A stretch of DNA of 64,000 nucleotides from an uncultured Thermoleophilaceae bacterium (GCA_963837445.1 CAWINK010000014.1:9487-73486); one strand, 5' to 3'; positions 3,299 to 25,605 are shown, counted from the stretch's first letter. Notes: generated by a model from the sequence alone, not told the origin. Numbers and translations are program-made.

Positions 3299-3877
3299 AT
3301 GACCCTCGCCATCGCATTTCTGCTCCTGCTCCTGACCGTCCCGCTCGCGGGTGGGAAGCTGAGCCGCGTCGGCACCATGAAGATCCGCTGGGTCGGGCTG
3401 GCCGTGGTTGCGTTCGGGGTTCAGGTGGTGCTCGTGACGATCGTCCCCGAAGGCGGCGGCACGGTGCACCGGATCTTGCACCTCGGCACCTACGTTTTGG
3501 CGGCCGCGTGCCTGCTGCGCAACCTGGACGTTCGATTCGTATGGCTGCTCGGGGTCGGCGGGCTTCTGAATTTGATCGCCATCGTCGCCAACGGCGGCGT
3601 GATGCCGGCGTCGCGTAGCGCGCTCGACTCGGCCGGGCTCGAGGTGCAGTCGGGCCAGTTCTCGAACTCGGATTTCGTGGAGGGCGCGCATGTCGCGTTT
3701 CTCGGCGACGTGTTCGCGGTGCCGGCCGGCTGGCCGGGTGCCAACGTCTTCAGCGTGGGCGACGTGCTCATACTGGTGGGGGTGTTCCTTGTGGTTCACG
3801 CGGCGGCCGGCTCCCGGCTAGGCGGAACCGCACGAACACCGCTCCCGCGATCGCAAGAATCACCAGCAGTGCAATAG
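3299..3877 (+). CDS. DUF5317-like membrane protein
   Basis: 192-aa polytopic ORF with ANGGVMP and SVGDVLIL motifs. Divergent from the GGDEF/EAL gene. Confidence 0.65.
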   Translation: MTLAIAFLLLLLTVPLAGGKLSRVGTMKIRWVGLAVVAFGVQVVLVTIVPEGGGTVHRILHLGTYVLAAACLLRNLDVRFVWLLGVGGLLNLIAIVANGGVMPASRSALDSAGLEVQSGQFSNSDFVEGAHVAFLGDVFAVPAGWPGANVFSVGDVLILVGVFLVVHAAAGSRLGGTARTPLPRSQESPAVQ

Positions 3878-4453
3878 CCGCGATCGCCTCGGGCGAGGTG
3901 AGGTCGCCGAGGCTGCCGCCGAGTGCCGTGTAGGCGAAGACCTTGGGCGCCGCGCCGATGAGCGTGCCGATGGCCATGTCCCTGTAGGCGAGGTGGGTGA
4001 GCCCCGCGCTGTAGTTGACGACGCCGTAGGGCAGCACGCGGGATGATGCGCGACTCCATCACGGCCACCGCGCCGTTTTCCGTGAGGAAGTTCTCGATCG
4101 GCTTGGTGCGGCGCGGGAGGAGCCTGCCGCGGTGCTCGCCGGCGAGCCGTGCGCGAGACCGCCATCTGGGCGAGCGCGGCGAGGGTGACGCCCGCGAGCG
4201 CGAGCGGCGTGCCCGCCGCGGTGCCGAACAGGAGCCCGGCCGCGCCCGCCAGGACGATCCACGCGACGAGGAAGTTGGCTAGGACGAAGAGCGGGACGTA
4301 GAGGAACGGCGCGAGCGGGCCGAGGTCGTTGCCGAAGTCGCGGGCCTCGTCGGCGGACGGGATCGCGCCCATGGCGAGGGCCGTGGCGAACACCGCGCCC
4401 ACGAGCGCCGCGTAAAGCGCGATCCGCCTGATCGCCGGCCGGCGCGAGTCCAT
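3768..4453 (-). pseudogene. TVP38/TMEM64 (DedA-related) membrane protein, two frameshifts as assembled
   Basis: The N-terminal ~101 aa lie in ORF 3860..4453. The middle piece GEHRGRLLPRRTKPIENFLTENGAVAVMESRIIPR is in a second frame. The C-terminal piece LPYGVVNYSAGLTHLAYRDMAIGTLIGAAPKVF is in ORF 3768..4037. Shifts at about 4150 and 4040. Confidence 0.75.
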
Positions 4454-4494: not shown

Positions 4495-4860
4495 GTGACG
4501 GCGCGTGCTTTGCGAAAGCTCTGCTTGGGGTTCCCGGGAGCGTTTGAGGATTTCCCGTTCGGCCCGGAGCACTCGGTGTTCAAGGTGGAGGGCAAGCTGT
4601 TCGCGATCAGCGCTTTGGCGGCCTCGCCCCTGCGGGTGTCGCTGAAGTGCGAGCCGGAGCTGGCGGAGCAGCTGCGGGCGGCTCATGCGGCGATCGCGCC
4701 GGGGTACCACCTGAACAAGCGCCACTGGAACACGGTGACGCTGGACGGCTCGGTGTCCGATGCGATGGTGCGCGACATGGTGGAGGACTCGTACGACCTG
4801 ATCGTGGCGGCGATGCCGCGAGCCGTGCGGGAGCGGCTGGGCTGGACGGTGTCGGCCTGA
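4495..4860 (+). CDS. MmcQ/YjbR family DNA-binding protein
   Basis: CLGFPGAFEDFPFGPEHSVFKVEGKLFA and YHLNKRHWNTV are typical of the family. GTG at 4495 is preferred; the tracked start 4468 is an alternative. Confidence 0.7.
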   Translation: MTARALRKLCLGFPGAFEDFPFGPEHSVFKVEGKLFAISALAASPLRVSLKCEPELAEQLRAAHAAIAPGYHLNKRHWNTVTLDGSVSDAMVRDMVEDSYDLIVAAMPRAVRERLGWTVSA

Positions 4861-5255
4861 TGTCGGAGTCGGAGAACGTGGCGCTCGTCCGGGCGACGAT
4901 CGACGCGTTCAACCGCGGGGATCTGGAGTGGCTGCTCGAGCGGATCGACGACGACTTCGAGTTCGACTGGACCCGAAGCCGCGGGCCGCTGGCGGGGCTC
5001 TACCGCGGGCCGGAGGGGCTCACGGAGTTCGTGCGCGAGCAGTGGGACACGTTCGAGACGTTCCACATGGAGGCGTTGGAGTACATCGACCGCGGGCGTT
5101 TCGTCGTGGTTCCGAATCGCGTGAGCGCCCAAGGCCGAAACGGAATCGAGGTCTCAGCGGAGGCGAACCAGGTGTTCACGCTGGAGCCGGACGGGCGGGT
5201 GTCGCGGGTGGCGATGTATCTGGAGTTGGAGGAGGCGCTGGCGGCAGTTGAGTGA
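4860..5255 (+). CDS. SnoaL-like / NTF2-fold protein
   Basis: 131-aa product MSESENVALVRATIDAFNRGDLEWLLERIDDDFEF... from the ATG at 4860, which overlaps the upstream stop. Paralogs lie at 36662..37144 and 39225..39536. Confidence 0.7.
   Translation: MSESENVALVRATIDAFNRGDLEWLLERIDDDFEFDWTRSRGPLAGLYRGPEGLTEFVREQWDTFETFHMEALEYIDRGRFVVVPNRVSAQGRNGIEVSAEANQVFTLEPDGRVSRVAMYLELEEALAAVE
5103..5245 (+). repeat. direct repeat copy 1 (3-prime end of the SnoaL-like gene)
   Basis: Aligns without gaps to 8553..8695. My hand count gives 15 mismatches in 143 nt, and the last 56 nt (5190-5245) are identical. Confidence 0.85.
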
Positions 5256-5369
5256 GCCGACAAGCGTGCTGACCAATGCCCGCAATGTGGGGAAAAGCCG
5301 TGTCGGACAGCCTTCAAGACACCTCCGTTGCCGTCGCAGCCGTAGTAGGACTCGCCTAGGCTCGGTCGC

Positions 5370-5887
5370 TTGACGGATTTCCTCTCCCACCGAAACCCGC
5401 AGCCGGGTGATGGCGCGGATCCGAAGCAAGGACACAAAGCCGGAACTCGCCCTTCGCCGTGCCGTGTGGGCGCTAGGTCTCGGGGCTGGAGATGCCACGC
5501 AAAGTACCGTCCCAGGCAAGCCCGACATGGCCTTCATCGGGCTCCGAAGTGGCCGGTATTTGTCGATGGTCGTTTTTGGCACGGACATCCAGACTTTTTT
5601 ACTTTCGGCAAGTCGGGCAAGCATGGGACTCAAAGATTGCCCGGACGCAGGCACGCGACCGTCTAGCGAATGCCACGCTAATCGGTGCAGGGTGGTCTGT
5701 GGTCCGCTTCTGGGATTTTGAGATCGAATCCGATCTGGATGCGTGCGCTCTCGCTGTGGAGGCCGCAGTCGGAGGCGCTAGGCGCGGCTATCCCCCGACC
5801 CGTCGGCTTCCGGGCGGAGAGGTCGGCAATCCGGCAAGCAGTAATCCGGCAGTCCGGCAACCAATGCGTGAGAGCAAACTCCGCTAG
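5370..5887 (+). pseudogene. vsr: very short patch repair endonuclease (Vsr), at least 5 frame switches
   Basis: Family motifs are spread over three frames: ETRSRVMARIRSKDTKPELALRRAVWALGL, VPGKPDMAFIG, VFVDGRFWHGHPD and IARTQARDRLANATLIGAGWSVVRFWDFEI. Confidence 0.8.
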
Positions 5888-6494
5888 CAGACTGGAAGTT
5901 GCCGACGCGCTCTGCGGCGCTTCTTGACTTCTAGTGGCGGCGGGGAGAGAGTAGGCTCTTCCTAACCAACCGCGGCGCAAGTAGTAGTACGGACGTCTGC
6001 GGCTGGGCTGGACACCCACGCCTAAGAAATGCACGCGCTTCCCGCCGAAACCATCCGCCGCACATCAGGTCGACAGGCGCTCTTGCCTGGCATTGAACAC
6101 CCTCAGCCTCAGCGCATACGGAGGTCATGACGCCGTGACTTACGTCACCTGCTGGGCCGCGACCGGGATCTTCGCCGTTGTCGCGACAGCGGCGCACATT
6201 GTCGCCTTGAATAGAGCGGGCGGCCTCCTCCCACCGCAACGGACCCGCGTGACCACATCTCAGTTTGAGCTGCGGATCCCCGGCTTGTTGCGGTCGCGCC
6301 GAACTACTCTGGTGACCGGGTTACGAGGCAGCCCCGAAAAGCGGATCCCCCGACCAAGCGCGGCCTCGCAAATTCGGCAGGATCACCCGTCGTTCATCCG
6401 GAGAGGGACAGATTCGACGGCCGCGCCGTCAGAGTTTCCGCGCCCTGATACGCCCGAGTTGTTCGGGTTGATCAGCAACAGGGTTGGTCTCTGA

Positions 6495-7217
6495 CGCATC
6501 TATGACGAACTCTTCCGGGCGCCCGAGGGACTTGACATTCGGTCTCTGAAGGAACGGATTCCTGAGTACGCCGATCAGATGCATTTCGACCGCCGGTTGC
6601 GGGATCTCGACAAACAGTTCGTACTCGAACGCCGACGCTCTGGCGGGTGGTTGGTGTACCGACTGGCTGGGCGCCGCGACAAGCCACGCGATGAGGGGCG
6701 GATCAACAAGACCCTCAGGGCGGAGGTTCTGTTTCGGGACGGAAGCCGGTGCCAAATGTGCGGGGCAAGTCCACAGGTCGATGAGAGTGTCCGGCTCCAG
6801 ATCGATCACAAGGTTCCCCTTCACTGGGGTGGGAGCAACGGCCCAGAGGGCCTGTGGACGCTTTGCCAACGCTGCAAATTCCGGCAAGCGCGACTTCTTC
6901 GCTTCGGTGCAGGAGCACTCGGAGGAAATCCGCGGCGCGATTAACCACCCGAGGTACATCGCCGCCTGGGCGAGCTGCTTCGCGCATTCGGAATCGGTAA
7001 CGACGTGCCGTCGTACGTCCTGGCGATCGTCGCCTCAGCCCAGCAGTACCAGGAGGACTGGCATAGACGGCTTCGGGAGCTGCGCGAGCTCGGCTGGGAC
7101 TACGCCGTCACGAAACGAAAGGAAGGCGACCGGATCGTGTCTTACTACCGACTGACGAAGGATGGGGGCTGGCCTGCCCACGGCACGATCCGAGAAGCGC
7201 TACGCGGCGCCTCATGA
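6495..7217 (+). pseudogene. HNH endonuclease with flanking winged-helix-like segments (candidate restriction nuclease of the Dcm/Vsr module), two frameshifts
   Basis: HNH core RCQMCG...LQIDHKVPLHWGG...LWTLCQRC then NSGKRDFF in the next frame, with an extra A in the AAA run at 6876-6878. It returns to the first frame near 6950 (RLGELLRAFGIG...IVSYYRLTKDG). The 5-prime end is unresolved because of an in-frame TGA at 6492. Confidence 0.6.
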
Positions 7218-7227
7218 CCCGCGGCTC

Positions 7228-8392
7228 CTACGTGCGGGCGAGGTGCGCCACCCGAAGTACGCCCCTCCTCGAGGGAACATCGCCCCCGTCTTGAGTTGGC
7301 GCCGTCGTGTCGCCGCTTAGCGCTGCCTCGCCCTCCATTTCGCGTTCCGCTACTTCCAGATCGCTTCCAAAGGTCGCCTCAATGAGGCGCGCAGCGCGGT
7401 TGACGTCGTGACCGCGTAGCGCCGCCTTGATTCTCCTCCCAAATGCCTCTGCGACAGGCGGAGGGAACGCGTTGCCTACTTGCCGGTAGGCCGCGGTTTT
7501 CCGTCCCTGAATCTGCCACTCGTCAGGATCGAAACCCTGGAGCACAGCTGCCATGGGAACCGTTAGGCGGGGCATTCCCCAGAAGTGAGGACCCGGTGGG
7601 CAATCGGCGAGCCCGAGAGCATCGACTCCCAAGCCGCGCCACTGTCGCTTGGCGCGGGTCGGCCCGAGGTCTGGCCCGCCATGCTTCTTTGAACCACCTA
7701 CGAGAGTGGGTGCAATCCGATCGGCGTCATGGTAGGCCCAGTACGGCGCGTACCACCAGCCATCCGCAGCCATGTAGTCGTGAAGCGCCTGGCCAACCGT
7801 AAGGGGTCGGCGGTGCGCTTCTTCGCCAGGCCAACGAAAGAACATCGCGGACGCTTCCTCAATGGCGATCAACAGCGCTCGAGGCCTGAGTTGGGGGATA
7901 CCGAAATCTGAGGCCTGGACCACGTCCCAACTCACGCGGTAGCCGCGGGCCTCTAAGCGCGCCACAACGGCTTCCCGATAGGAGTCGAACTTCGCATCGA
8001 GGATGCCTCGGACGTTCTCGAGCATCACCGCCCGTGGCTCGCACTCATCGACGAGCCGCAAAGCCTCTGGGAAGAGGTCACGCTCATCCGCGCTTCCAAG
8101 CTGCTTCCCCGCTTTTAGAACGGCGGGCAAGGTACGCCGCCAGCCAGCAGCGCAACTTGTCCTCGCCAAGCGGTCACATCGAAGCGTCGTACGTCCCCTT
8201 TTCCTCTTCTCAGGTGTAGTCGATCCCCGACGTACGGTCCGAAGACCGCCACTCCGGTCGATTCGTACGAAGGGTGCTACACGCCCACTCGTCGTTCTCG
8301 ACTAGTGCAATGTGCTGAAAGCCGGCCTTCTCGAGACCGAGCGCCTGCCCACCCGCCCCTGCGCAGATTTCGATTGACGTTAAGGGGGCCAT
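7228..8392 (-). pseudogene. dcm: DNA (cytosine-5) methyltransferase, two frameshifts
   Basis: Motif I is [19 protein letters not shown] (ORF 8210..8392). Motif IV, LLAGGVPCPPF, is in a third frame. ENV (VMLENVRGIL), QLRPRALLIAI and GNAFPPPVAEAF are in ORF 7228..8169. Shifts at about 8245 and about 8115 (T4/A4 run). Confidence 0.85.
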
Positions 8393-8552
8393 CAGCAGGG
8401 AGCAAGGCTAGGGCCGCAACCGGATCGAAGCCTTCAGGCATCACTCAAAGGACGGCGCTACCAGCTATGAACTGGGACGGTAGTCGAACCCGGCCAGCTC
8501 GAATGGTCGGTCGGCCACCGTGCTTTTCGACCTAGGTGCATCGGCTGCGACC

Positions 8553-8708
8553 GTGGTGGTGCCGAACAAGGTGCGCGCGCAAGGCCGAAACAGGATCGAT
8601 GTCTCAGCAGAGGCGAACCAGGTGCTCACGCTGGAGGCCGACGGGCGGGTGTCGCGGGTGGCGATGTATCTGGAGTTGGAGGAGGCGCTGGCGGCGGCGG
8701 CGCAATAG
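8553..8708 (+). pseudogene. orphan 3-prime remnant of a SnoaL-like gene (direct repeat copy 2 at 8553-8695)
   Basis: VVVPNKVRAQGRNRIDVSAEANQVLTLEADGRVSRVAMYLELEEALAA matches the C-terminus of the 4860..5255 product. No matching N-terminal part lies upstream. Confidence 0.75.
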
Positions 8709-8852
8709 GGCGCAACTGACCGAAGCGCCCTATCGCCGATCGAGGCGCCGTCCCCCGCGATTGTGCGCGTGGTCGTGGTGTTGGATTCCGGACGACTATT
8801 GACACGCCGGGTGTCAACCACACGGCGTTCGTCACGGGAACGCCGCTCGGTG

Positions 8853-10786
8853 CTAGACCGCTTCCAGCTCTAGGTCATCGATCTCATCCTCGACAGGCGC
8901 GGTGCCGTCCTTGATGTCAGCGGCAGGCTCGTCAGGCTCATCGACCTCTGTCGCGTCGACGGGAGTTGGCGCGATTCCGCAGGCGCGCCTGATGTCCTCG
9001 ATGATCGCGGCTTGCCGGGCGTTGACGAAGCCGCCATACAGATCGACGATTTCGTCGTCCGACAGCTCTTCGGGCGCAGCCCGCAGGATCGCAAGCGTGC
9101 TGGCATCGATGAAGTGTGGCTCCAATAGATCGGCTGGCGCGCCTGAGGGGAAGATGTTGTCGTTGGCCACGTAATCCGCGGGGGCCTTGTCCTTGATCTT
9201 GCCGTTGGTTTCGTTGGAGATCAGTGTCCGATTGGCGATCGTGTTGACGTCCGACACGCTTGGTGATGCCATGCCGCTTGAGATAAGCCTGCGGGAAGAT
9301 GTGGTGATCCTGCAGCTCCTGGAGTTGGATGTCCTCGCCGCGACGCCAGTCCCGGGCGTTGCGGAGGGCCAAGCAGGCAGAAGACCCCGCTGTAGCGCGC
9401 GCTTGCGTAGCTCGCCGAGTCGCGGATGCGGAAAGCCTGGAGCGCCGATCGAGTCTGCGCGCTTCGCGGAAGACTTCAGGTTCAGGGCCGTCCTCGAGCC
9501 AATGGCGCGTCATCTCGAGGTAGTCCTTGCGGGACTTGCTCTCCACGGCGCTCGAGTAGCGCTCCATGAAGACGTTGCACCAGTACCAACGACGAAGATC
9601 GGCCCGCTCTTCTGCGCCCAGTCTTGCGCTCGTCGATCTCGGCATCGCAGTGCCGCCAGGATCGGGATGAGGCCGAATCCCGGCAGCCACTTCTTCGCGA
9701 ATACTCCGAAGCCGTCTGGGGCCACCAGCGTGATCAGTTCGAGCGCCCGGTCAATAGCGGCCGCGGCGCGCCGCCAGTCCTCTCGAAGTCCGTCGGCGAA
9801 AGGTCGATCGAGATCCGCGGCTTCGGATCCAGTCCGCGAAGAAGCGCGAGCGTGCGCAGCACCAGGACGCCGAACTTGTGCTCGTCGGCCTTGCCGTTCG
9901 ACCAATCGCGCAAGCCGTGGATGTGCGTGCAACAGCCTCGTCCCACAGGTCGTGCAGGCGGATCCCCGAGCGATAGAGCCGAGCCGTCAGCAGGTCGTAG
10001 ACCGAAAGATCGACGCCCGTCGAGTTGAGCTTCTCGAAGATTGCGCAAACGCGACCGATCGACTCGCTGTCGGAGTCGTCGACGCGGGGCAGCTCGACGA
10101 GCGGAACTTCGAATGTCTGAAAGCGGTGACCGCGCTCGTCCAGCCGTCGCGCCACTCCGCGCGGTAGTCGATCGAGCTTGTCCGGATGCCTTCTGGCGAA
10201 GCCAGTCCTCGAAGCCGTCGCGCCACGTGATAGAAGCGCTGCTGCGTCAGGAGCACGGTGCACGGCAGCATGCGCTGCTCGTACTGGGCCTCCGCCGTAT
10301 CGAGGCCCCGAAGCTCCCGCTTGGCCCGGTCGAAGACGACCTCGTCGCTATCGGGCTCGCTCAGGAGGACGTCGAGGTTCACGAAGAACCATCGCCGCTG
10401 ACTCGAGTCCTTGAGCGAGAGATCTGGGGCAGTCAGCGCGTAGATCAACGACGAGAGCCGCTGCTGGCCATCGAGGATGAGCAGCTCCGGACGCGGCTCG
10501 CGGCGGCGGGTTCGGCACCCCGAAGGAACACGGGAGCGAACGGTGGATTGTTGGCGATCGCACCGAAGCAGTAACAGCGAGCCGATGAAGTAGCCACGCA
10601 CGATCGACCGCACGAGATCGGCGACCTCCTCGCGCGTCCACACAAAGTCGCGCTGGAAGTTCGGCAAGGCAGATCTTGCCGTCATGGGCCGCCTTCGACG
10701 AGGCCGGTCACCTTGCGCTTGTCCGGGATGATCTCCACGTGGTCGGATGCTATCGGCGATTGCTCGGCGGCATCCCCAGCTCTCAC
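8853..10786 (-). pseudogene. GmrSD-type DUF262/DUF1524 protein (type IV restriction-like), at least 8 frame switches
   Basis: DUF262 motifs: ALPNFQRDFVWTREEVADLVRSIVRGYFIGSLLL and ILDGQQRLSSLIYAL. DUF1524/HNH-like motifs: DHHIFPQAYLKRHGITKRV and NTIANRTLISNETNGKIKDKAP. The pieces alternate among all three minus frames. There are two shifts within about 30 nt near 10680. Confidence 0.8.
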
Positions 10787-10876
10787 GGAACAGGCCAACC
10801 AACTGGCATCTGGCTGTGAACACTTTCTGCGCGAGCCCTCATCGGGTCTCGCGTGCTTGGGTTTGGTCGCTCGTGG

Positions 10877-13485
10877 CTACTCGTACGCGATGCCAACGTC
10901 CCGGTACACCGCAGCAGCGCTTTCTGCTTCCCGGACGCTCTACCCGGACATTGGGGTTAAGGAGGTCGAGCATCACGAGCTTGCCCTTATGAGCGCTGTT
11001 GAGGTCGCCCTTGTCGTTCTTGCTGATCGCCTCGATGCGAACGAAGCGGTCGCCGTACTCCTCTGCGAAGTCCGCGAGGCCTTGAGCTTGCCGAACGCGT
11101 CGCTCAGGTGGTGGCCGTGCGGGTCAACGATCGGCGGCAGCGATCTCGCCGTCTGGTACTTCTCGAGAAGAAGACGAAGTCGGGCTGCATCGAGCGCCAA
11201 CGCTCGCCGTCATGCCACGGGACCTGCACCGCGTCCTTCGTCGCCGAGGAGGGGTTGCGGTACCAGGCGACCGTGTTGTCGCGGCCGAGCTCCGTGTCGA
11301 GGACCGAGACCTCCCAGCCGCCGAGCTTGCCGATCGGATAGTTGCCCGTCGTCGTCGGACAGGACGTGCCGTTCGCGCGTCGGCAAGCTGCGTCTTCTGC
11401 TCGCCGTCGATCTCGTGGGTCATCTCGATCCGCGACGCCGGGACCACGACGTCGATCGCTTGCGGCTCCTTCGCCTGTTGCTTGATCTCGTCGTAGCGGC
11501 GCGTCGCTCTTCGCTAAGGCCTTGATCTGCGGCGTGGAGCGATGAGAACCAGCCATTGATCGATCTGGTCAGCCGCGGCCTCGACTTGCTCGACTACCGC
11601 GGGCGATCATGGCGAGCGCTGCCACGCGTCGCCTTCGCTGCATAGATGTCGAAGTCGTCGTCGTCATCGTCGGCGTCCGTCGAGCGCGAGCGTCTTGGCG
11701 TAGCCGTTCGCGATCGCGACGCCGAAGGCGCGCGTCGCCACCTTGAAGGCGTCGTCGACCGTGCGCTCGTCGGCCGCGAGCTGCAGGCTCGCTCTCGGTC
11801 GACTCGTCGCTCAGCCGATTCGCGGTGATGCGCTTGATATCGGCGGTCAGGATCGCCTCAACGTTCTCGTCCACGGCGGGCTTGTGCTGCGCGAGCTGAC
11901 CGTCGAGGATCGCGAAACAGCTTGTCGTGCGCCTCCTGCGTCGGGCTCGGGCGCAGCTCGTCGAGCGCGATCTCCGCCGCGAGGTTCAGCAGGCGCTTCG
12001 TCGGCTTAGCCGGCGCCTTCGGCGAGCCTTGCTCGGCAGGCCGCGAAGCACTCCTTAACGCCCGGCGGGAGCGCCTCGTTCCAGAGCATCGTCACGGGAT
12101 CGATGAGGACCCGGCCGGCTGTCGGCGGAGCGGCGCCATCGTCCTCCTGCGTGACGCCAGTCATGATGTCGGCGACCTGCTTGGCCGTGGTGAGATCGAA
12201 GTGCGGCAGGAAGCAGGTCACGGCGTTCAGGCGCTCGTCGGACTCGATGCGGCGGGCGAGCGGGGTGCGCACCAGCCGGCCGAGCAACTGGGTGATGTGC
12301 GTCCGGTCCTTCGCGGGCCGCAGCGAGACGAGCACCTCGGCCCGCGGGCAGTCCCAGCCGGTCGAGATCGCGTCCTTGGCGAGCAGGACGCGGACGTGCG
12401 TCGCGTCCTGCACGTCCTGCGGCGCGATGTAGGGCGACGTCGTGGCTGCCGTACGTCTGCGTCTGCGTGCTCGCCGAAGACGTTGGCGACGGCGTCGGCC
12501 GGAAGCTCCGGCCACTCCTCGTAGATCGTGTCGAGGAGCGTCTGTGATCTCCGCTCGCTGACGGCTTGTTCGGCACCTGCACGACGAGCAGCGGCCGGAC
12601 CGGCTCGGGCATGTCCTCCTGCGTCGGCGTACGCCGCCCAGAGCTCCGGACGCGTCGCGGCACGCCTTCGCGGCCTCGCGCAGCGAGCACCGTGTCGAAC
12701 GCGCCCGCCTCGTCGGGCAGGTCGAGCCTGATCGTGTCCTTGAGCAGGCCCGACGCCTGCACCGCTGCGTTGTCGACGATCGACGTTCGGGCAGCGTGAT
12801 GCGGTCCTTCGCCTCCTTCATCGCCTCGTTGAAGCGCTCGACCGTGGCCGAGATGCCCCACACGATCGGGACGCGGCGGGCGTGCCGTTGTGCCCGTTGA
12901 TGAGCCGCAGCACGGTTGTCGAGCGATCTTGCTCCTCGGCGTCCTGCGCCGTTGCGGGCCGCATCCCGCGGTGCGCCTCGTCGAGCACGAGGTACGAGCG
13001 TGCGGTCGGCGATCGTTCGATCGTGTTCGCGATGGTCTCCCAGAGCGTGTAGGTCGCGCTTCGTTGCTGCTGGGTGATGAAGCGTGCTTCGCCGTGAGCT
13101 TCTGGCGGTTGAGGAAGTAGACTTCCCGGCGTCGAGCCGCTCGACGTCGAAACTCGTCTCCGATGATCACGCAGGCGCGACGAGCCGAGCCGGTCGCTCG
13201 CCTCCATGATGCGGAAGCGCGTCTGCTCGTTCAGTCGGGTCGTCGGTGACCCAGAGGACGACCGCCTCGGGTCGCGCGTCGAACTCGAACTCGTCCGAGC
13301 CGTCGAACAGCGCCTCGAACACCGCCGCCGCCATGACCGTCTTGCCTGCGCCGGTGATCGCCGACAGCGCGAAGGCGACTGCGGCGGTCCTTGCTCCGTA
13401 GTCGTCGCGCGCGTCGGCAAGGCGCCGCAGGACCTCCGCGACGGCGTCCGTCCTGGTAGTCCTTGAGCGTGAACTGCATCGTCAC
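10877..13485 (-). pseudogene. type III restriction Res-like DEAD/DEAH helicase-nuclease subunit, many frame switches
   Basis: N-terminus MTMQFTLKDYQD. Walker-A-like ITGAGKT by hand translation. YLVLDEAHRGM (DEAH box). ...DATHVRVLLAKDAISTGWDCPRAEVLV (helicase motifs V-VI). C-terminal WRSMQPDFVFF...VDPHGHHLSDAFGKLK tail. Hand-derived stop TAG at 10877-10879. Confidence 0.75.
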
Positions 13486-13496
13486 GCCCCGCCCGG

Positions 13497-15625
13497 CTAT
13501 CGGAAGTTGTCAGGTACGACTCGTAGAGCCGCACCGGCTCGACGCCGTGCAGGCAGCTCGGCCGCGACGACCTGGAACTGCGTCTCGTCGTCGGTCACGA
13601 CGAAGGCGATGCGCAGCCGTCGGCCTCCGCGCACCGCGCTGACGAACTCGCGCCGCCGCGTCCAGGTCGAACAGCACCCCGTAGCGTGTCCGCCACCGTC
13701 GAACGGCTCGTCGGCGCGTCGTCGATCGCGTCGACCCTCGCCGCCGGCGCGCAGCCAGAGCAGCGGCGCGATCGCCTCGAAGCCGAGCCCGTGGCTCGAC
13801 GCGCTCGGGTCCTCGTAGGTCAGGTCGAAGAACTCGACGTTCTCCTCGAAGCCGTCGGCCATCGGGAACTCGTCGGTGAACTTGTAGTCGCCCTTGATCG
13901 GCTCGCCGTCCGGCGTCGGCCGGTGATCGCGGCCGTGATGCGCGGCTTGCGTGATGTGCTCGCAGATCCCGAGCGCCTCCCACTCGGGGTCGCCGGGCCG
14001 CAGGCCCTTGCTCGCGCAGCGCTCGTCTGCCTCGTCGGCCGAGACCTCGTTGTTGGTGACCATGATCGACTGGCGCCGGCCGCCGTCCTGCTGGTTGAGC
14101 CGCATCACGGCGTGGGCCGTCGTGCCGGAGCCGGCGAAGAAGTCGAGGACGACGGCGTCGGCTTGTCTGCCGACGAAGAACCGGAGCGCGTCCTCGACCG
14201 CGTAGAGCGACTTCGGGAACGGGAACCGTCGGTCCGGGCAGCAGCGCTTCGAGCAGTCGCGTGCCGTACTGCTCCGCGTCGTGCGACGAGCGCGTTCCAG
14301 ACTGTCGTCGGGCATGCGATCGCTCGTCGCGTCGAGTACTCGCGATGATCAGCGACCCGTCGTCGTCCTGCCCGACGACCTCGAGCTCGCCGTCCGCAAT
14401 GCTTCGCGATGCTCGCCGCGTGCAGGTAGTAGATCGACGTAGCGCTGTCGCTCGGCGTTGACGCCGCCGACGCGGACGATCCCTCGTCGATAGCGCTCGC
14501 AGCGCGTCCGGCGTGATCTGCCAGTTCCTCTCGGTCCCGTCCTTGCGGATCGGCCAGACGGCACGCAGCCCCGTCGGCGCCGGTGCCGGTCTCGCGGTCG
14601 TCGCGCAGCGAGCGGCTCCCGACGCCGAACGATCTGCCGCGTCTGCCGCGTTCGACGAAGATCGGATAGAACTGGTTCGGTCGGTCCTGCGCGCGCTTGC
14701 GTTCCGCGACCGCATCAGCAGTCCCAGCGACTGCTCGGCGTGTCCTCCAGCGGCAACGGCGCACTCGCCGTCCGACGTAGTCGACGTCGGCTCGACGGCG
14801 ACCGTCGCCGCACCGAGCAGCACGAAGAAGATGTACTCGTCCGACCGCGAGAACGTCGCCGTCGCGGCTGTCCCGCGCGGGTTGATGACGATGCTGACCA
14901 TCTGGATCCGCGCCTCCGGAGAACATCTGCTCCAGCAGCAGCCCGAGCCGCAGATACTCCTTCTCGTCGATCGTGACGATCAGCACCGAGTCCTCCGGGT
15001 TCAGCAGCTCCTTCGCGAGCATGAGCCGCCGCTCCATGAACGCGAGCCACTTGCTGTGCCGGTAAGCGTCGTCGCCGTCGACGTAGTCGTTGTTGTACTT
15101 CCAGTCCTTCGCGCCGCGTGTTGTACGGCGGGTCGATGTAGATGCAGTCGACCTTGCCCGCGTGGGTGAAGAGCAGCGCCTCCAGCGCGTGGTAGTTCTC
15201 GCCGTTGATGACCGTGTGGAACGGCTTGTCGCCGCCGCGCTCGACCTTGCCCGGTCGAGACCAGGCCCGGGATAGATCGGGTCGCGAAACTCGGCGACGA
15301 CCACGAGATCCTCGATCGGCGCTGTGTCGTCTCCGGGTCGTCGGTCAGGCCGCGGAGCACGAGCCGGGCCTGCCGTTTCGCTCCCTTGCCTTCGAAGCCG
15401 ACAACGACCCACGTCGTTGTCTCGCGAACCGGACGTCGCGGAGGACGACCTTGTCCCCGCGGCCGAGCGTCCGACTCGGCAGCTGGATGGACTCGGGGAC
15501 GTGCCGCTCGAAGTTGAGGCCGAACGGTCGCCGGCTGCTGAGAACCGCGACTTCCCGGCGAAGGTCTCCGCGAGCGCCGCGTCGGTCTTCGCGACCTGCG
15601 CGATCAGATCGGTCAGTCGCGACAT
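13497..15625 (-). pseudogene. type III Mod-like N6/N4 DNA methyltransferase, at least 8 frame switches
   Basis: RRPFGLNFERHVPESIQLP N-terminal region. GGDKPFHTVINGENYHALEALLFTHAGKVDCIYIDPPYNT (DPPY motif, verified by hand translation at 15121-15240). VLDFFAGSGTTAHAVMRLN (motif I). Ends ...RLYESYL/DNFR-stop 11 nt before the res start. Confidence 0.8.
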
Positions 15626-15957
15626 ATGTTCGCCCTCCCAACCGCGTCCCCATTGACGTGTTCACGGGAGGTCCAGGCACGCGCGGCAGTCTTCCATGGC
15701 TTTCGACGAAAACACCGCGGTGTCTCCAACTCGCTGGTCGGGGATCCACATGTCCCCGAGACTAGAGCCCGCCGGCCTCCTTGGCTCAGTCGCTCATGAG
15801 GCTCTTCGCATGGGGTACACGTCGGCGATTCCGGGGACGCGCCGCCTCCCAGAGCGACGCACGCCTAGAGTTTGGATCCATGGCCCTCCCCGGCTGAATA
15901 CTGGGAGTCCTTCGACTACACCGTCACTTCCGTCACGAGTTCCTCGGAGACAGTCGG

Positions 15958-16791
15958 ATGATCTCGGCATACCAGTCTGCGACGGACAGTCGGTTCGTGT
16001 GGCGGGGCGCCGCGGACGCAGACTGGCCGCTCTACTCCTCCCTTACTCGGGCATACATCGATCTCCACGGGACTGCTCCTCTTGAGCCAGCACTCCGGGA
16101 GTTCGAGAGCACCGTGATCGAGGAGGCAAGAACTGGGGTCTCGATTGGCATCAGTCAGGCGGCAAGCTGAGTGCGCTTGAGCTGCTTGCCGCGCTGCTCC
16201 AGCGCTACCGGGGTGCCGACGCGGATCATGGACTTCACATTCAACCCCCTCATAGCGTGCTGGTTCGCGGTCGAATCGCACGATGGTTCCAGCGGGCGGG
16301 TCTTCGCAATCGACATCTCAGAACGGCTCGTGCCACGGGAGGATGCAGCGGCGGCGAATCCGTGGTGGTGGCGCGTCGAGCCTGGCGTTACGACCGAATG
16401 GGCGACTACAAGACCTGGGTCTGGCGCCCTCCGCCCTTCGAGGCGCGCATCGTGCGCCAAGACGGGTGCTTTGTCATGGGCGGCGTTCCATCAACCCAGC
16501 CGGCGCGCAATCGACGTACGGCCCCAACAACGTGGAAGCCGCTTCGGGCCGATGACGTAAGGGCTTGTATGTCGATTCCCTTTCGCCTGATCCAGTACGA
16601 GCAGGCTGTTGCCGCCTTCAACGACGAGCACTCTCCGCGGTGCACCCCCTAAGGCGCGTGCTTTCACTTTGCGTATCGCCGGCGACAAGAGCGAGCTTCG
16701 GAAGGAGTTGGCACAGAGCTTCGGGCACACGTACCGCTCGCTTTTCCCGGACTACCCTGGGCTCAAGGCGTTTGGGGAATCATTCCGATAG
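15958..16791 (+). pseudogene. FRG-domain protein, at least 3 frame switches (may start near 15881)
   Basis: FVWRGAADADWPLYSSLTRA, then GVPTRIMDFTFNPLIACWFAVE, then WRPPPFEARIVRQDGCFVMGG, then FTLRIAGDKSELRKELAQSFG. Each piece is in a different plus frame. Confidence 0.7.
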
Positions 16792-16904
16792 GCGCTTATG
16801 TCCTAGACGGACGATCCGGCGATCAGACCGGCCGACGGCGACCTCCACAGGGGCACTGGTCGGAGCTGAGCGACATAGGATGCCGCCATGCCTCGTCAAG
16901 GGGG

Positions 16905-17207
16905 ATGGTCGAGACGGATCGCGCGTACGACTACCCACCGCCCGGCCTATTGCTCATATTCGAGGCCGAGAAATGGGATCAGTCGTGTCCTACTCGACCT
17001 GCCGTGGCCAGTCTATGTGGGTGGTTTCACAGCTTTGCATATGGGTTGAGCCACGTCTTTGGGACGCCCTACAAGGCGGTCGCGAGGTTCCACAAGGCAC
17101 GTAAGGAGTACTGGGAGAGTCGCCTCGAGGACGAAGAAGCACGAGAGCGCTACTTCGACTTCAAAAAGGGAGCAAGCAGAAAAGCGACTGCCGTTCAGGC
17201 TCGCTGA
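16905..17207 (+). CDS. hypothetical protein in the lower-GC spacer next to the tRNA
   Basis: A 100-aa ORF is the only support. Neighbouring frames also carry ORF fragments, so it may be part of a longer frameshifted gene. Confidence 0.25.
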   Translation: MVETDRAYDYPPPGLLLIFEAEKWDQSCPTRPAVASLCGWFHSFAYGLSHVFGTPYKAVARFHKARKEYWESRLEDEEARERYFDFKKGASRKATAVQAR

Positions 17208-17352
17208 AGTCCACGAGACCCACAGGTTGCCGCCGCCGGGAAAATCAATCGAGCTGCCCCCACCCGGGGACCCGAACTACCCGGCTAACGGGTAGCCCCC
17301 GCGGAGCAATGCGATGCCCGGGGGTCGGCCTAACCGGCTCCTACGCGCCCGA

Positions 17353-17426
17353 AGCCGACGGTGGGATTCGAACCCACGACCCCCGCTTTACGAGAGCGGT
17401 GCTCTGGCCATCTGAGCTACGTCGGC
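17353..17426 (-). tRNA. tRNA-Thr (anticodon CGU)
   Basis: The reverse complement GCCGACGTAGCTCAGATGGCCAGAGCACCGCTCTCGTAAAGCGGGGGTCGTGGGTTCGAATCCCACCGTCGGCT folds as a cloverleaf. It has a 7-bp acceptor stem, a GGTTCGAATCC T-arm and anticodon loop CTCGTAA. Confidence 0.9.
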
Positions 17427-17776: not shown

Positions 17777-18121
17777 ATGGCGCAGACGCAGCAGCCGCCC
17801 AATCGCTGGCTCGAGGCTTTCAACCCGCGGGTCCCGCTCTATCGCGACACCTACAACGAGTACCTCGTCTTCGTCGTCTCGGCGATCGGCTCGGTGGCCG
17901 GCACTCAGGTGCCGCTCTACCTCGTCATGGCGCTCACGGACCTGTGGTCCGTCTGGGTGTTCGTCGCGGCCTGCGTCGTCTTCGAGCTCTTCGTGATCTT
18001 CTTCATCGCCCGGCCGCAGATGAAGCCGAATGAGCGGGTCATGTGGGCGGCTCTCTGGGCCGGCGCCACCGCCGTGCTCGCCCTCGCCTTCTACTACCTC
18101 GTCGCCGAGCCGACTCTCTAG
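17777..18121 (+). CDS. small membrane protein (three predicted helices)
   Basis: MAQTQQPPNRWLEAFNPRVPLYRDTYNEYLVFVVSAIGSVAG... is hydrophobic. Convergent with holB, with a 4-nt overlap. Confidence 0.5.
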   Translation: MAQTQQPPNRWLEAFNPRVPLYRDTYNEYLVFVVSAIGSVAGTQVPLYLVMALTDLWSVWVFVAACVVFELFVIFFIARPQMKPNERVMWAALWAGATAVLALAFYYLVAEPTL

Positions 18122-19245
18122 CGCGCGCCCGCCAGCGACGCCAGCCTGAAGCCGAGCGCCGACAGCGCCAGGTCCTCGGTCACGTTCAGCTCCAGCGACT
18201 GGCGCACCTCTTCGCAGCGCTCGGCCGCCTCGCGCAGTCGGCGCGGGTCGCGGCTTCGGGCCTGCTCGGCGAGCGCGGGCGCTCGGTCGGAGGCCAGCAC
18301 CGCGTCGGACGCATCCTCGGCCAGGCAGATCAGGTCGCGGAAGGTCAGGGCGGTCAGCGTCAGCGAGAGCTCGAGTGATTCGCGACGAGCTCGTCGCCCG
18401 TCCCGCTTCGCCGACTCCTCGAACTCCTTCTCGATCGCCTTGCGCTCGCGGCCCTTTGGCTCGAGCTCCAGTCGGCGCTTCGCCTCGACCGCCACCGCCT
18501 CCTCGGCGGCCAGGCCCTGCGCCTCGGCGCGCGCGAGGAGCGGTCGCCACGGCTCGGGGTCGTCGGGAGAACCGCCGGACAGTGCTGCGAGCACGACCGC
18601 CTCCACATCCGAGCGCAGCTGCTCGCCGTCCGGCGACGCCAGGTACCGCGCTCGCGCCGCGTTCCCCAGCGACAACCCCGCGCACGCCTTCGCCCGATCC
18701 GCCGGCACGCCCTCGGCCTCCAGATGCGACGCGATCGTCGCCGCCGGCAGCGGCTCGAAGCGCACCAGCTGGCAGCGCGAGATAACCGTCTCGAGCACCC
18801 GCCCCAGCTGGTCCGTCATCAGGATCAGATGCACATACGACGCCGGCTCCTCCAGCGTCTTCAGCAGCCGGTTCGCCACCTCGTCGTTCATCGTGTCCAC
18901 GCGCTCCAGCACGAACACGCGCCGCCGCGCCTCGAACGGGGTCCGGTAGGCCGCGTTCACCACCGGGCCCTCCACGTCATCGACCCTCATCACGTGCGCG
19001 CCGCTCGGGCGCACCCAGGTCAGGTCGGGATGCGCCCCGTGCATCACGCGCGTGCGCACGGCGTCCGGATCGTCGGACCCCTCGGCCAGCAGCTCCGCCG
19101 CGAACGCCCGCGCCACCGTCCGCTTCCCGGTCCCCGCGGGCCCGTGGAACAGATACGCGTGCGAGGGCTGCCCCGAGGCCAACGAAGCCGACAGCACCAT
19201 CCGCGCCTGCGGGTGGTCCTCCGTCCCTGCGAGCGTGACCGTCAT
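18118..19245 (-). CDS. holB: DNA polymerase III subunit delta-prime
   Basis: MTVTLAGTEDHPQARMVLS...HAYLFHGPAGTGKRTVARAFAAELL...LKTLEEPASYVHLILMT...SRCQLVRF. The ATG overlaps the tmk stop (ATGA). Confidence 0.85.
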   Translation of the reverse strand: MTVTLAGTEDHPQARMVLSASLASGQPSHAYLFHGPAGTGKRTVARAFAAELLAEGSDDPDAVRTRVMHGAHPDLTWVRPSGAHVMRVDDVEGPVVNAAYRTPFEARRRVFVLERVDTMNDEVANRLLKTLEEPASYVHLILMTDQLGRVLETVISRCQLVRFEPLPAATIASHLEAEGVPADRAKACAGLSLGNAARARYLASPDGEQLRSDVEAVVLAALSGGSPDDPEPWRPLLARAEAQGLAAEEAVAVEAKRRLELEPKGRERKAIEKEFEESAKRDGRRARRESLELSLTLTALTFRDLICLAEDASDAVLASDRAPALAEQARSRDPRRLREAAERCEEVRQSLELNVTEDLALSALGFRLASLAGAR

Positions 19246-19844
19246 CCCCGTGCAGCCTCCACGGCGGCCAGGACGTCTGCGTGGACCTCGTCGGGCGAGC
19301 GGGTCGCGTCGATGCGTCGCCAGCGATCCGGGTCGGCCTCGATCAGCTGCTCGTACGCCGCAGCCGACAGCCTCCTGCAGCTCGCTCCCCTCGTCCTCGA
19401 AGCGGTCGCTCTCCCCCGCGCGCGCGGCCGCGTCGTCGGGCGACAGATCCAAGAGGAACGTCAGATCGGGCTTCAGCCCCCGGGTCGCGAACTGGTTCAC
19501 GCGCTCGACGTCGTCGATCCCGAGCCCGCGCGCGCCGCCCTGGTAGGCGAGCGACGAATCCAGAAAGCGGTCGGAGACCACGACCTTGCCGGTATCCAAA
19601 GCGGGCAGGATCACGTTCGCCACGAGCTCGGAGCGAGCCGCCGCGAACAGCAGCGCCTCGGTCTCGGGCGCCAGGTCGATCTCCGCGTCCTTGAGCAGAT
19701 CCCGAAGCCGCTCGCCGGCCGGCGTTCCACCCGGCTCGCGCACCCCCAGAGCGCCGCATCCCCAAGGGCGTCCACCAGCAGCCCCGCCTGTGTTGTCTTG
19801 CCGGAGCGATCGATGCCCTCGAAGGTGACGAACAGGCCGCGCAT
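19242..19844 (-). pseudogene. tmk: dTMP (thymidylate) kinase, two compensating frameshifts as assembled (probably artefactual)
   Basis: MRGLFVTFEGIDRSGKTTQAGLLVDALGDAAL is in frame a. GVREPGGTPAGERLRDLLKD...DRFLDSSLAYQGGARG...FEDEGSELQ is in frame b. RLSAAAYEQLIEADPDRWRRIDATRSPDEVHADVLAAVEAARG-stop is back in frame a. Shifts at about 19745 (C5/G5 run) and about 19375. Confidence 0.85.
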
Positions 19845-19988
19845 CTCGCGCGGGCGAACCTAGCATCGCCCCGGGCTTTACCGACTCCTAACCGAACCCT
19901 GTCCCGGCCCTCACACCGGCTTGGGCGGCCGCTGGCCACCCGCGGGCGATTCTTGTCGAGAAGCTCAAACCCGACAGGAAGAAGCACC

Positions 19989-20523
19989 ATGCGCAGGACA
20001 CTCACACTCATTCTCGGGGTCGCCCTCTTCGGAATCCTGGCCGCCGTCGTGGTGGCTTCTCAGGATGACGACGACCCGGCCGGAACGACCGGTACGACGA
20101 CCACCACGGAGACGACCACGACCGAGACGCAGGACCGCACCAACACGGTCGAGGACGACAGCCCCGCCCAGGGCGGCGTGGACATCTCCGGCCCGTGTGA
20201 CGAGGCCGAGCACGCCAACGACCCCCGCTGCGTCGGGCAGGCGCCGGCCCAGCAGGGGACGACTCAGACGGCGCCCTCGCCGGGCGTGGACATCTCGGGC
20301 CCGTGTGACGAGGCCGAGCACGCCAACGACCCGCGCTGCACCGGCGCGGCGACCGGCGACGACCGCGGGCACGACGACCGCGGGGACAACTCCGGGCCCG
20401 GTAGCGACAACTCCGGCCCCGGCGAGCTGCCCACTCCGGCGCGGCGACGATGACGACGACGACAGCAGCGGTCACGGCGGCGGTGGCAACAGCGGCCACG
20501 GCGGCGGTGGCGACGACGACTGA
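19989..20523 (+). pseudogene. secreted/anchored Thr-rich protein with a duplicated Cys motif and a Gly-rich DDD tail, one frameshift near 20440
   Basis: MRRTLTLILGVALFGILAAVVVAS signal/anchor. GVDISGPCDEAEHANDPRC occurs twice. The tail GDDDDDDSSGHGGGGNSGHGGGGDDD-stop is in the adjacent frame. Confidence 0.55.
20175..20339 (+). repeat. in-frame tandem duplication (57-nt units at 20175-20231 and 20283-20339, period 108 nt)
   Basis: The two near-identical 57-nt units each encode GVDISGPCDEAEHANDPRC. Confidence 0.85.
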
Positions 20524-25029: not shown

Positions 25030-25605
25030 GTGCATTGCCCGTACTGCGAATCCGACTCCACGCATGTCGTGGACACGCGCGATGCGGGCGACGCCGTCCG
25101 CCGCCGTCGCGAATGCGAGGGCTGCGGCAACCGCTTCACCACGTATGAGCGGACGGAAGCAGGCGTGACCGTCCTCAAGCGTGACGGCCGCCGCGAGCGA
25201 TTCGACGACCAGAAGCTCCTGGGAGGGCTCGAGCGGGCCGCCAACAAGCGACCCGTGAGCTCGGAGCAGCTGGAACACCTGTCGGAGTCGATCGCGGCGG
25301 CGGTGAGGCGGTCCGGCCCCGAGGTCGAGGCGAGCCAGATCGGCGATCTCGCCGAGCGCGGGCTCGCCCAGCTCGACCCGGTGTCGGGGATCCTGTTCGC
25401 CTCCGTCTACCGCAATCTCGCCGACCTCGACGAGGTGGCCGAGACGGTCCAGCGCTACCGCGACGACCCCCTCCCCGGGGCCGATCAGCTGCCGCTGGAG
25501 GGCGAGGAAAGTCCGTCCGGTCCGAGGAGCAATATCGATCTTTCCCCCCTGGGGGAGTCCCGACAAATCGCCCAACCGAGGAGAGGTCATGCCAGACAGC
25601 CGTAA
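25030..25605 (+). CDS. nrdR: transcriptional repressor NrdR
   Basis: MHCPYCESDSTHVVDTRDAGDAVRRRRECEGCGNRFTTYER zinc ribbon followed by an ATP-cone. Confidence 0.9.
   Translation: MHCPYCESDSTHVVDTRDAGDAVRRRRECEGCGNRFTTYERTEAGVTVLKRDGRRERFDDQKLLGGLERAANKRPVSSEQLEHLSESIAAAVRRSGPEVEASQIGDLAERGLAQLDPVSGILFASVYRNLADLDEVAETVQRYRDDPLPGADQLPLEGEESPSGPRSNIDLSPLGESRQIAQPRRGHARQP

Follow-up and report, generated by a model that had tools for sequence, protein, structure and literature searches.

A strain-variable defense island next to tRNA-Thr of an uncultured Thermoleophilaceae bacterium: at least two insertions and frameshifts of probable assembly origin

The genome of an uncultured Thermoleophilaceae bacterium carries a ~12-kb defense island at positions 5246-17352 of the DNA analyzed here, a 64,000-nucleotide stretch of one contig (GCA_963837445.1 CAWINK010000014.1:9487-73486; hereafter, the window). 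The island adjoins tRNA-Thr(CGT), the sole tRNA gene of the window, and it contains seven complete genes of known families, encoding a Vsr endonuclease, an HNH endonuclease, a C5 cytosine methyltransferase, a DUF262 nuclease, a type III-like Mod/Res pair, and an FRG-domain protein, all of which are interrupted by frameshifts. We hold with good confidence that the island arose through two or more insertions at a hot spot bounded by tandem SnoaL genes and tRNA-Thr, that it is assembled from known modules, and that its genes are intact in the organism, the insertions and deletions (indels) being noise of the assembly. The original prediction for this DNA, made from the sequence alone, had described a single block of four stacked modules whose every gene is disrupted. 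As detailed below, its account of the location and most of the content was borne out, while its views of the block as a unit and of the disruption as a property of the organism were not.

To find the closest genomes, the intact holB gene (18118-19245) was used as a probe. The nearest genomes are uncultured Thermoleophilaceae, mostly Microflora Danica Nanopore genomes, with holB identities of 97% (L005 and L058), 95% (L074), and 92% (L001). Synteny of SnoaL-like gene 1 with L005, L058, and L074 holds up to 5245-5259, and comparison at the DNA level indicated that the homology of the relatives ends at 5245/5259 and picks up again at 17347-17350, which is 3-6 nt off the 3’ end of tRNA-Thr. The order in L005 is simply SnoaL1, SnoaL2, ~120 nt, and tRNA-Thr, i.e. 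the site is empty. The cargo at this site is an McrBC system (AAA_5 + McrBC) in L058, a DUF4062 protein gene in L074, and a set of metabolic genes in L006, while L001 encodes a tyrosine integrase (Phage_integrase plus a SAM-like domain) and a HepT/MNT toxin-antitoxin pair adjoining tRNA-Thr (12657-14938). This integrase is the only one observed at the hot spot among the relatives compared. Because the site is empty in L005 and occupied by different cargo in L058, L001, L074, and L006, we can conclude that 5246-17352 is a real strain-variable defense island, as the original prediction had proposed for these coordinates and this content. Among the loci reaching the tblastx match list, only L074 shares island genes with the window: it also has homologs of Vsr, HNH, and the C5-methylase, the latter with ~66% nucleotide identity. 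The GC content of the window and of the island flanks is ~70%, most of 5246-17352 lies at 62-65%, and the Mod/Res part is near the host level. It should be noted that the 3’ end of tRNA-Thr in L074 (12393-12430) is swapped for unrelated sequence and that the tRNA is no longer called there by ARAGORN; the explanation is either assembly noise or an incursion of the L074 island into the tRNA.

The island is not the one block that had been assumed previously. The relatives carry two tandem SnoaL paralogs, and the 3’ remnant of the second of these lies in the middle of the island. The Vsr/HNH/methylase block sits between SnoaL1 and the truncated SnoaL2, and the remaining 8.6 kb between SnoaL2 and the tRNA occupies the same position as the cargo of L058 and L074. 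A fragment of host DNA inside the island (8552-8699) points to at least two insertion events. We suggest that the first insertion (~5246/5260-8551) brought a 5-methylcytosine restriction-modification type module and removed the 5’ two-thirds of SnoaL paralog 2, and that the second (~8700-17347) comprises three independent units, namely the DUF262/GmrSD-like nuclease, the type III pair, and the stand-alone FRG gene. A 144-nt direct repeat (5102-5245 and 8552-8695, 90% identical) was separately considered as an attachment-site (att) duplication and ruled out, as the second copy is the remnant of the SnoaL2 paralog found in L005, L058, and L074.

The identity of the island genes was examined initially with Pfam on raw frame translations with stops masked as X, covering the three plus-strand frames of 5246-8600 and 15200-17400 and the three minus-strand frames of 7150-17400. 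This recovered fragments of Vsr, HNH, DNA_methylase, GmrSD_N, N6_N4_Mtase, and FRG in different frames. For frame correction, intact homologs drawn from metagenome loci, a large protein collection, a representative library, and neighboring genes on fetched contigs were aligned to the DNA by dynamic programming that allows for frameshifts (our own script, with controls). When judged against the Pfam gathering thresholds, the corrected proteins matched Vsr, HNH, DNA_methylase, GmrSD_N, ResIII, N6_N4_Mtase, and FRG, all above the gathering score, and PADLOC identified type II and type III restriction-modification components, a DUF262 nuclease, and the candidate system PDC-S15 (FRG). Thus, the families named in the original prediction were matched by profile searches of corrected translations, except for DUF1524, which scored 13.8 bits against a cut-off of 23. 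NCBIfam searches of the corrected DUF262, Res, FRG, and HNH proteins returned nothing besides a sub-threshold IscB match caused by the HNH motif. A gene-finder trained on the core genome (Viterbi) labels most of the island non-coding and was used solely to list candidate frameshifts outside it, while blastx chaining against the open reading frames (ORFs) of relatives was noisy, owing to errors in the relatives and to the antisense ORFs of high-GC DNA, and was superseded by the frameshift-aware alignment. The features of the island and its borders are listed in Table 1.

Table 1. Features of the tRNA-Thr-adjacent island and its borders, in window coordinates
Feature	Position	Strand	Evidence and remarks	Frameshifts	In-frame stops
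SnoaL-like gene 1	4860-5255	+	ORF; intact host flank; left border of variable region		
Vsr very-short-patch repair endonuclease	5349-5839	+	Pfam Vsr PF03852 73.3 bits; PADLOC Vsr; complete	5	0
Stretch between Vsr and HNH, ~590 nt	5840-6428		Without detectable gene or RNA		
HNH endonuclease, ~265-aa family	6429-7225	+	Pfam HNH 32.9 bits; PADLOC REase_II PDLC03478 E=4.7e-8 (weak, 31 bits)	2-3	1
C5 cytosine DNA methyltransferase	7228-8392	-	Pfam DNA_methylase PF00145 195 bits, profile 2-323/324; PADLOC DruM/MTase_II 372-426 bits; complete	2-3	0
Weak tRNA-like (T-arm/acceptor) stretch	8474-8491	+	16/18 matches to L006 tRNA-Met 3’ end; between methylase start and SnoaL2 remnant		
SnoaL paralog 2, 3’ remnant (host DNA)	8552-8699	+	92% identical to SnoaL2 end in L005; matches L074 and L058 too		
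DUF262 nuclease, GmrSD/type IV style, ~620 aa	8856-10738	-	Pfam GmrSD_N PF03235 99.3 bits, profile 4-198/199; PADLOC PDC-M55C and HEC-05	16	0
Res-like subunit, SF2 helicase + C-terminal PD-(D/E)xK-like motif, ~855 aa	10904-13479	-	Pfam ResIII 52 bits	27-31	0-1
Type III Mod methyltransferase, ~710 aa	13510-15637	-	PADLOC MTase_III PDLC03645 867 bits, profile 1-696/709; Pfam N6_N4_Mtase 68 bits	23-26	0
Stand-alone FRG-domain protein, ~300 aa	15890-16791	+	Pfam FRG PF08867 57.5 bits; PADLOC candidate PDC-S15 PDLC04938 E=3e-27	5	0
Stretch between FRG and tRNA 3’ end, ~560 nt	16792-17352		Holds 100-aa orphan ORF 16905-17207		
tRNA-Thr(CGT)	17353-17426	-	ARAGORN; Rfam tRNA 70.5 bits; right border of island		

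The frameshifts are real features of the sequence, and the earlier observation that every gene needs multiple frame switches to be read was confirmed, with 2-31 per gene. Using one reference homolog per gene, we counted 83 frameshifts in 3,168 aligned codons, or ~1 per 115 nt. The damage consists almost entirely of indels. The sole in-frame stop of this set is a TGA at 6492-6494 in the HNH gene, a codon that has no counterpart in any of the four HNH homologs and is therefore itself an insertion. Bacterial substitutions usually outnumber indels by ~5 to 1. With a stop arising from ~3.2% of single-base substitutions in these frames and a substitution:indel ratio of ≥5, ~13 new stops would be expected, and the probability of observing at most one is ~2e-5. 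Every island gene aligns essentially full length to intact homologs at 46-76% identity and without large deletions, and the catalytic motifs that were read from the corrected genes are intact. Of the 83 events, 53 are of the insertion class and 30 of the deletion class, while real bacterial pseudogenes show a deletion bias. Nor are the frame switches confined to the island, which amends the original description. In the essential thymidylate kinase gene tmk (19245-19887, minus strand), 3 frameshifts put the conserved middle into a different frame from that of the N- and C-terminal parts, such that only positions 30-146/185 of the Pfam profile are found in one frame; one- and two-base insertions relative to L005 are located at 19360 and 19748. 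As a result of the tmk frameshifts, tmk and holB appear fused in the ORF listing as a 582-aa ORF. Similarly, a DedA/VTT-domain gene (3816-4453, minus strand) has 2 frameshifts, both single-base insertions, and further flank indel sites are present at ~400, 17623, ~20430, 20765, and 24459, the last of which is 7 kb from the island. Background indel noise would thus run through the entire contig. The flanks have ~10 sites in ~16 kb (~1 per 1.5 kb), which is ~13-fold lower than the 83 in 9.5 kb of the island, and the same alignment method found 0 frameshifts in each of three controls: holB, a 945-aa ORF (25589-28426), and an ORF at ~1440-2780. As a side observation, the region 20380-20450 is a low-complexity coding repeat rich in Pro, Thr, and Arg with a 33-nt indel and several small ones relative to L005; it probably reflects a repeat protein of variable length rather than noise only. 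The C5-methylase copy of L074 (17295-18246) was also found to switch frame ~10 times in tblastx, and thus, in a second long-read genome too, noise is highest in this type of variable module.

The near absence of stops, the full-length genes, the insertion bias, the affected flank genes, and the clean controls together lead us to read the damage as consensus indel noise. The ~83 frame switches would accordingly be errors of a noisy long-read assembly, with the genes intact in the organism. The relatives are Nanopore-only Microflora Danica assemblies that received a single round of Medaka polishing (PMC12313526). The higher density of errors in the island would be most likely due to a putative minor strain, which alone carries the island and is supported by few reads. 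A different explanation is genuine decay, in which the island and some of the neighboring genes are true pseudogenes that have been eroding since the defense became useless or toxic. It would account for the fact that every island gene is frameshifted and at a far higher density than in the flanks, for the loss of any integrase, for the truncation of SnoaL2, and for the absence from the window of the NaeI enzyme found in a related module. We nonetheless consider it very unlikely, since decay is difficult to reconcile with 83 frameshifts and 0 substitution-derived stops, with 46-76% full-length identity in the absence of large deletions, with a bias opposite to that of real pseudogenes, with intact catalytic motifs, and with a tmk gene that is essential and also broken. 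Given the same evidence, the disruption is better regarded as a feature of the assembly than as one of the organism, which is where we depart from the original prediction. A final option is that the indel-only damage is itself biological, such that a local process seeds single-base insertions across the island and a few kb of its flanks without substitutions, for example when restriction turned on the organism’s own DNA triggers slippage or error-prone repair. If true, the organism would be silencing its own defense island by frameshift hypermutation. To this we give hardly any credence; a separate and milder novel reading, in which the HNH protein is an accessory nuclease, is taken up below.

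Several observations weigh against our preferred interpretation of known modules obscured by assembly noise. Nanopore errors usually concentrate in homopolymers, and the flank indels relative to L005 are not in homopolymers. In addition, the technical origin of the indels is deduced from their pattern, and accounting for the 13-fold higher error rate of the island would call for read depth. As for the modules, HNH is only a candidate for the cognate restriction enzyme of the first one; a related module (L165) also has NaeI and the window has none. The match of Res to the PADLOC REase_III profile is weak (43 bits) and spans just ~130 residues (356-484) in the helicase C region, and neither sequence nor profile searches of the PDB turned up a relative of Res.

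We also considered whether the entire region might be a single, complete mobile element borne by an integrase in the tRNA-Thr or a tRNA-Met gene, with its recombinase and att sites masked by indels. The island abuts the tRNA 3’ end, a tyrosine integrase is present at the same tRNA in L001, and L165 has its related Vsr-HNH-NaeI-methylase module beside an integrase. Moreover, tRNA-Met or its 3’ fragment lies beside tRNA-Thr in some relatives: L006 has a complete tRNA-Met(CAT) after tRNA-Thr (12377-12450), in L004 this position is taken by a nearly identical version of its 3’ 45 nt (2160-2204), and in L005 only these 45 nt are retained and are fused directly to the end of tRNA-Thr (12103-12147). 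Neither tRNA-Met nor the 45-nt fragment is found beside tRNA-Thr in the window, L058, or L001, and the 45-mer has no copy anywhere in the window. Integration at this hot spot may originally have targeted the tRNA-Met gene. The tRNA-like stretch at 8474-8491 is possibly an old attachment-site scar, but it is weak and statistically marginal, with ~0.03-0.1 such matches expected by chance according to our own rough estimate and with only a relaxed ARAGORN call overlapping it. A single element is very unlikely in our judgment. In agreement with the original prediction, the Pfam scan, whose frames take in the coding strand of every assigned gene, detected no integrase or transposase family; an excisionase family was likewise not detected. 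At 590 and 560 nt, the two orphan stretches could not accommodate a recombinase, and neither has homologs. A search for the tRNA-Thr 3’ end elsewhere in the window came up empty with up to 3 mismatches allowed, and the host SnoaL2 fragment in mid-island argues for at least two separate insertions.

The same orphan stretches had been proposed, together with the FRG gene, as the place where an undescribed defense component might hide. The second stretch stands as originally delimited, while the first is 5840-6428 and not 5888-6494, as HNH homologs begin at ~6429; hence, this interval is not the HNH N-terminus. That a small protein or RNA with a defense role resides in one of them strikes us as highly improbable. 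Both stretches do lie inside a defense island without an assignment, and the FRG gene is followed by a 100-aa ORF in the window, as an FRG homolog on L162 is by a 116-aa ORF. However, the two ORFs are unrelated, and a combined six-frame query of 5880-6440 and 16792-17352 yielded no homolog at E≤0.01 among 5.8 billion proteins. The window ORF (16905-17207) had no Pfam or PADLOC match, Rfam reported nothing besides the tRNA, and promoter-like and terminator-like sites were not enriched and gave no signal in either stretch. Folding of 16792-17352, the one stretch folded, revealed no excess structure (z-score -1.24). Furthermore, the Vsr-HNH spacer of L165 is only ~105 nt. These null results are weaker than usual, because the stretches probably contain indels too; even so, no positive sign of a hidden component emerged.

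The first module encodes Vsr, HNH, and the C5-methyltransferase. The corrected Vsr retains a legible FVDGRFWHGH motif and is 69% identical to the L165 Vsr over 161/164 aa, the corrected methyltransferase has the PCPPF and GNAFPPP motifs, and HNH shares 76% identity with the homolog P0271 at 98% coverage. The HNH family is a frequent neighbor of C5-methylases or Vsr; on L166 the HNH gene is present without a methylase. On L165 (3762-8363; Logan DRR656196), the order is Vsr, HNH, NaeI, C5-methylase, and integrase, and both Vsr and HNH are 69-71% identical to those of the window. This locus represents the module in mobile form, with NaeI as a separate restriction enzyme; no NaeI-like sequence was found in the window. 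We propose that the methylase marks host DNA, that HNH cuts, and that Vsr repairs the T:G mismatches arising from deamination of 5-methylcytosine. Alternatively, HNH might be an uncharacterized accessory nuclease rather than a restriction enzyme, given that it accompanies Vsr and C5-methylases even beside NaeI on L165. The recurring association of Vsr, HNH, and C5-methylase, in which the role of the nuclease is ambiguous, constitutes a minor lead.

The DUF262 protein is 53-60% identical to homologs of 605-780 aa. It has the ILDGQQRL motif (DGQQR), and a DHHIFP...NRTLIS motif could be read by eye at its C-terminus. The GmrSD_C domain (DUF1524, PF07510), which fell below its cut-off here, scores 17.1 bits in the intact homolog P0137 and is not matched in P0125. 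Because intact homologs are also sub-threshold or without a match, the low score is a subfamily trait. As a predicted type IV enzyme, the protein would cleave modified DNA. Its membership with Mod/Res in a three-gene PDC-M55 system was examined and ruled out: there was no PDC-M55 component among the Res matches and the listed Mod matches, and none of the 80 metagenome loci with a Mod/Res pair contained a DUF262 gene. FRG and Vsr genes were likewise found in 0 of these 80 loci, and therefore the modules are independent of each other.

The Mod and Res genes are separated by just 30 nt, from the Mod stop (13510) to the Res start (13479), and in the metagenome loci examined, ~860-aa Res homologs are located directly downstream of Mod homologs on the same strand (e.g. 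L148, L144, and L113). Mod is 59-61% identical to its homologs over the full length and includes the motifs IDPPYN (DPPY) and FFAGSGTT (FxGxG). Res is 46-49% identical over residues 2-850 of 859-aa homologs and has the motifs GAGKT, DEAH, and QxxGRxxR in the corrected sequence. Its Helicase_C score of 18.8 bits is under the cut-off, no NCBIfam model matched it, and an alignment of the family exhibits both the SF2 motifs and a C-terminal RPDF...VDPHG...K, a nuclease motif read by eye. Together with the failure to find a PDB relative, this indicates that the canonical type III Mod is partnered by a Res of a divergent subfamily, which is a second minor lead. Mod would methylate, and Res, as an SF2 ATPase with a PD-(D/E)xK-like motif, would cleave unmodified DNA.

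The FRG protein has 154 homologs of ~300 aa, the best of which are 64-69% identical, and it aligns over its full length to homologs of 299-301 aa. These homologs occur as single genes in variable regions, with transposases or other restriction genes nearby. For FRG, neither sequence nor profile searches of the PDB gave a match, and we know of no experimental demonstration of defense or NADase activity for the family. Judging from these comparisons, it appears to be an ordinary member of a large family already catalogued as the PADLOC candidate PDC-S15, and together with the lack of homologs, Rfam matches, or structure (the latter in 16792-17352) in the orphan stretches, this leaves little room for the undescribed component envisaged originally. 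The FRG domain has been placed in the ADP-ribosyltransferase superfamily and is predicted to be antiviral, possibly as an NAD-consuming effector (PMC9503650).

Overall, the island is nothing new in kind, being a mosaic of already-catalogued systems at a variable site. It adds an example of a tRNA-adjacent defense hot spot in the poorly sampled Thermoleophilaceae, and it also provides a caution: strain-variable islands in long-read metagenome assemblies can show indel rates about an order of magnitude above those of the core genome. Such islands look like pseudogene fields and evade ORF-based defense finders, while frameshift-aware alignment was able to recover all seven genes of the window in complete form.

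Compared with known tRNA-adjacent defense islands, the region shares the variable cargo at one conserved tRNA site across related genomes, a GC content below that of the host, the stacking of immune genes, and an integrase that is kept in one relative. It differs in that the window copy has neither an integrase nor att repeats and combines at least two insertions, with the remnant of a host gene between them. The first module resembles C5-methylase plus Vsr modules of the Dcm/Vsr/EcoRII type and the NaeI type on L165 in its C5 methyltransferase with canonical motifs and adjacent Vsr and HNH nucleases. L165 has the same Vsr and HNH families alongside a C5-methylase, but it also has the NaeI endonuclease and an integrase, whereas the window has neither; the Vsr/HNH/methylase set of L074 is unlike that of the window in gene order and orientation. 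With the GmrSD/DUF262-DUF1524 type IV enzymes (relatives of Eco94GmrSD, BrxU, and SspE), the DUF262 nuclease has in common an N-terminal DUF262 domain with DGQQR, a C-terminal DHHIFP...N His-Me-like motif, and its occurrence as a single gene within a defense island. Its C-terminal domain differs in being below the Pfam GmrSD_C threshold, as in intact homologs, and its best PADLOC match is the candidate PDC-M55C/HEC-05 rather than a characterized GmrSD. The type III pair parallels restriction-modification systems of the EcoP15I/EcoP1I type in having mod upstream of res on one strand, a Mod that fits the type III methylase profile end to end with DPPY and FxGxG, and a Res with a ResIII domain, SF2 motifs, and a C-terminal PD-(D/E)xK-like motif read by eye; it differs in that Res fits REase_III profiles over a short segment only. 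Lastly, the FRG protein closely resembles PDC-S15, as it is a stand-alone gene product of ~300 aa with a single FRG domain and 64-69% identity to many homologs.

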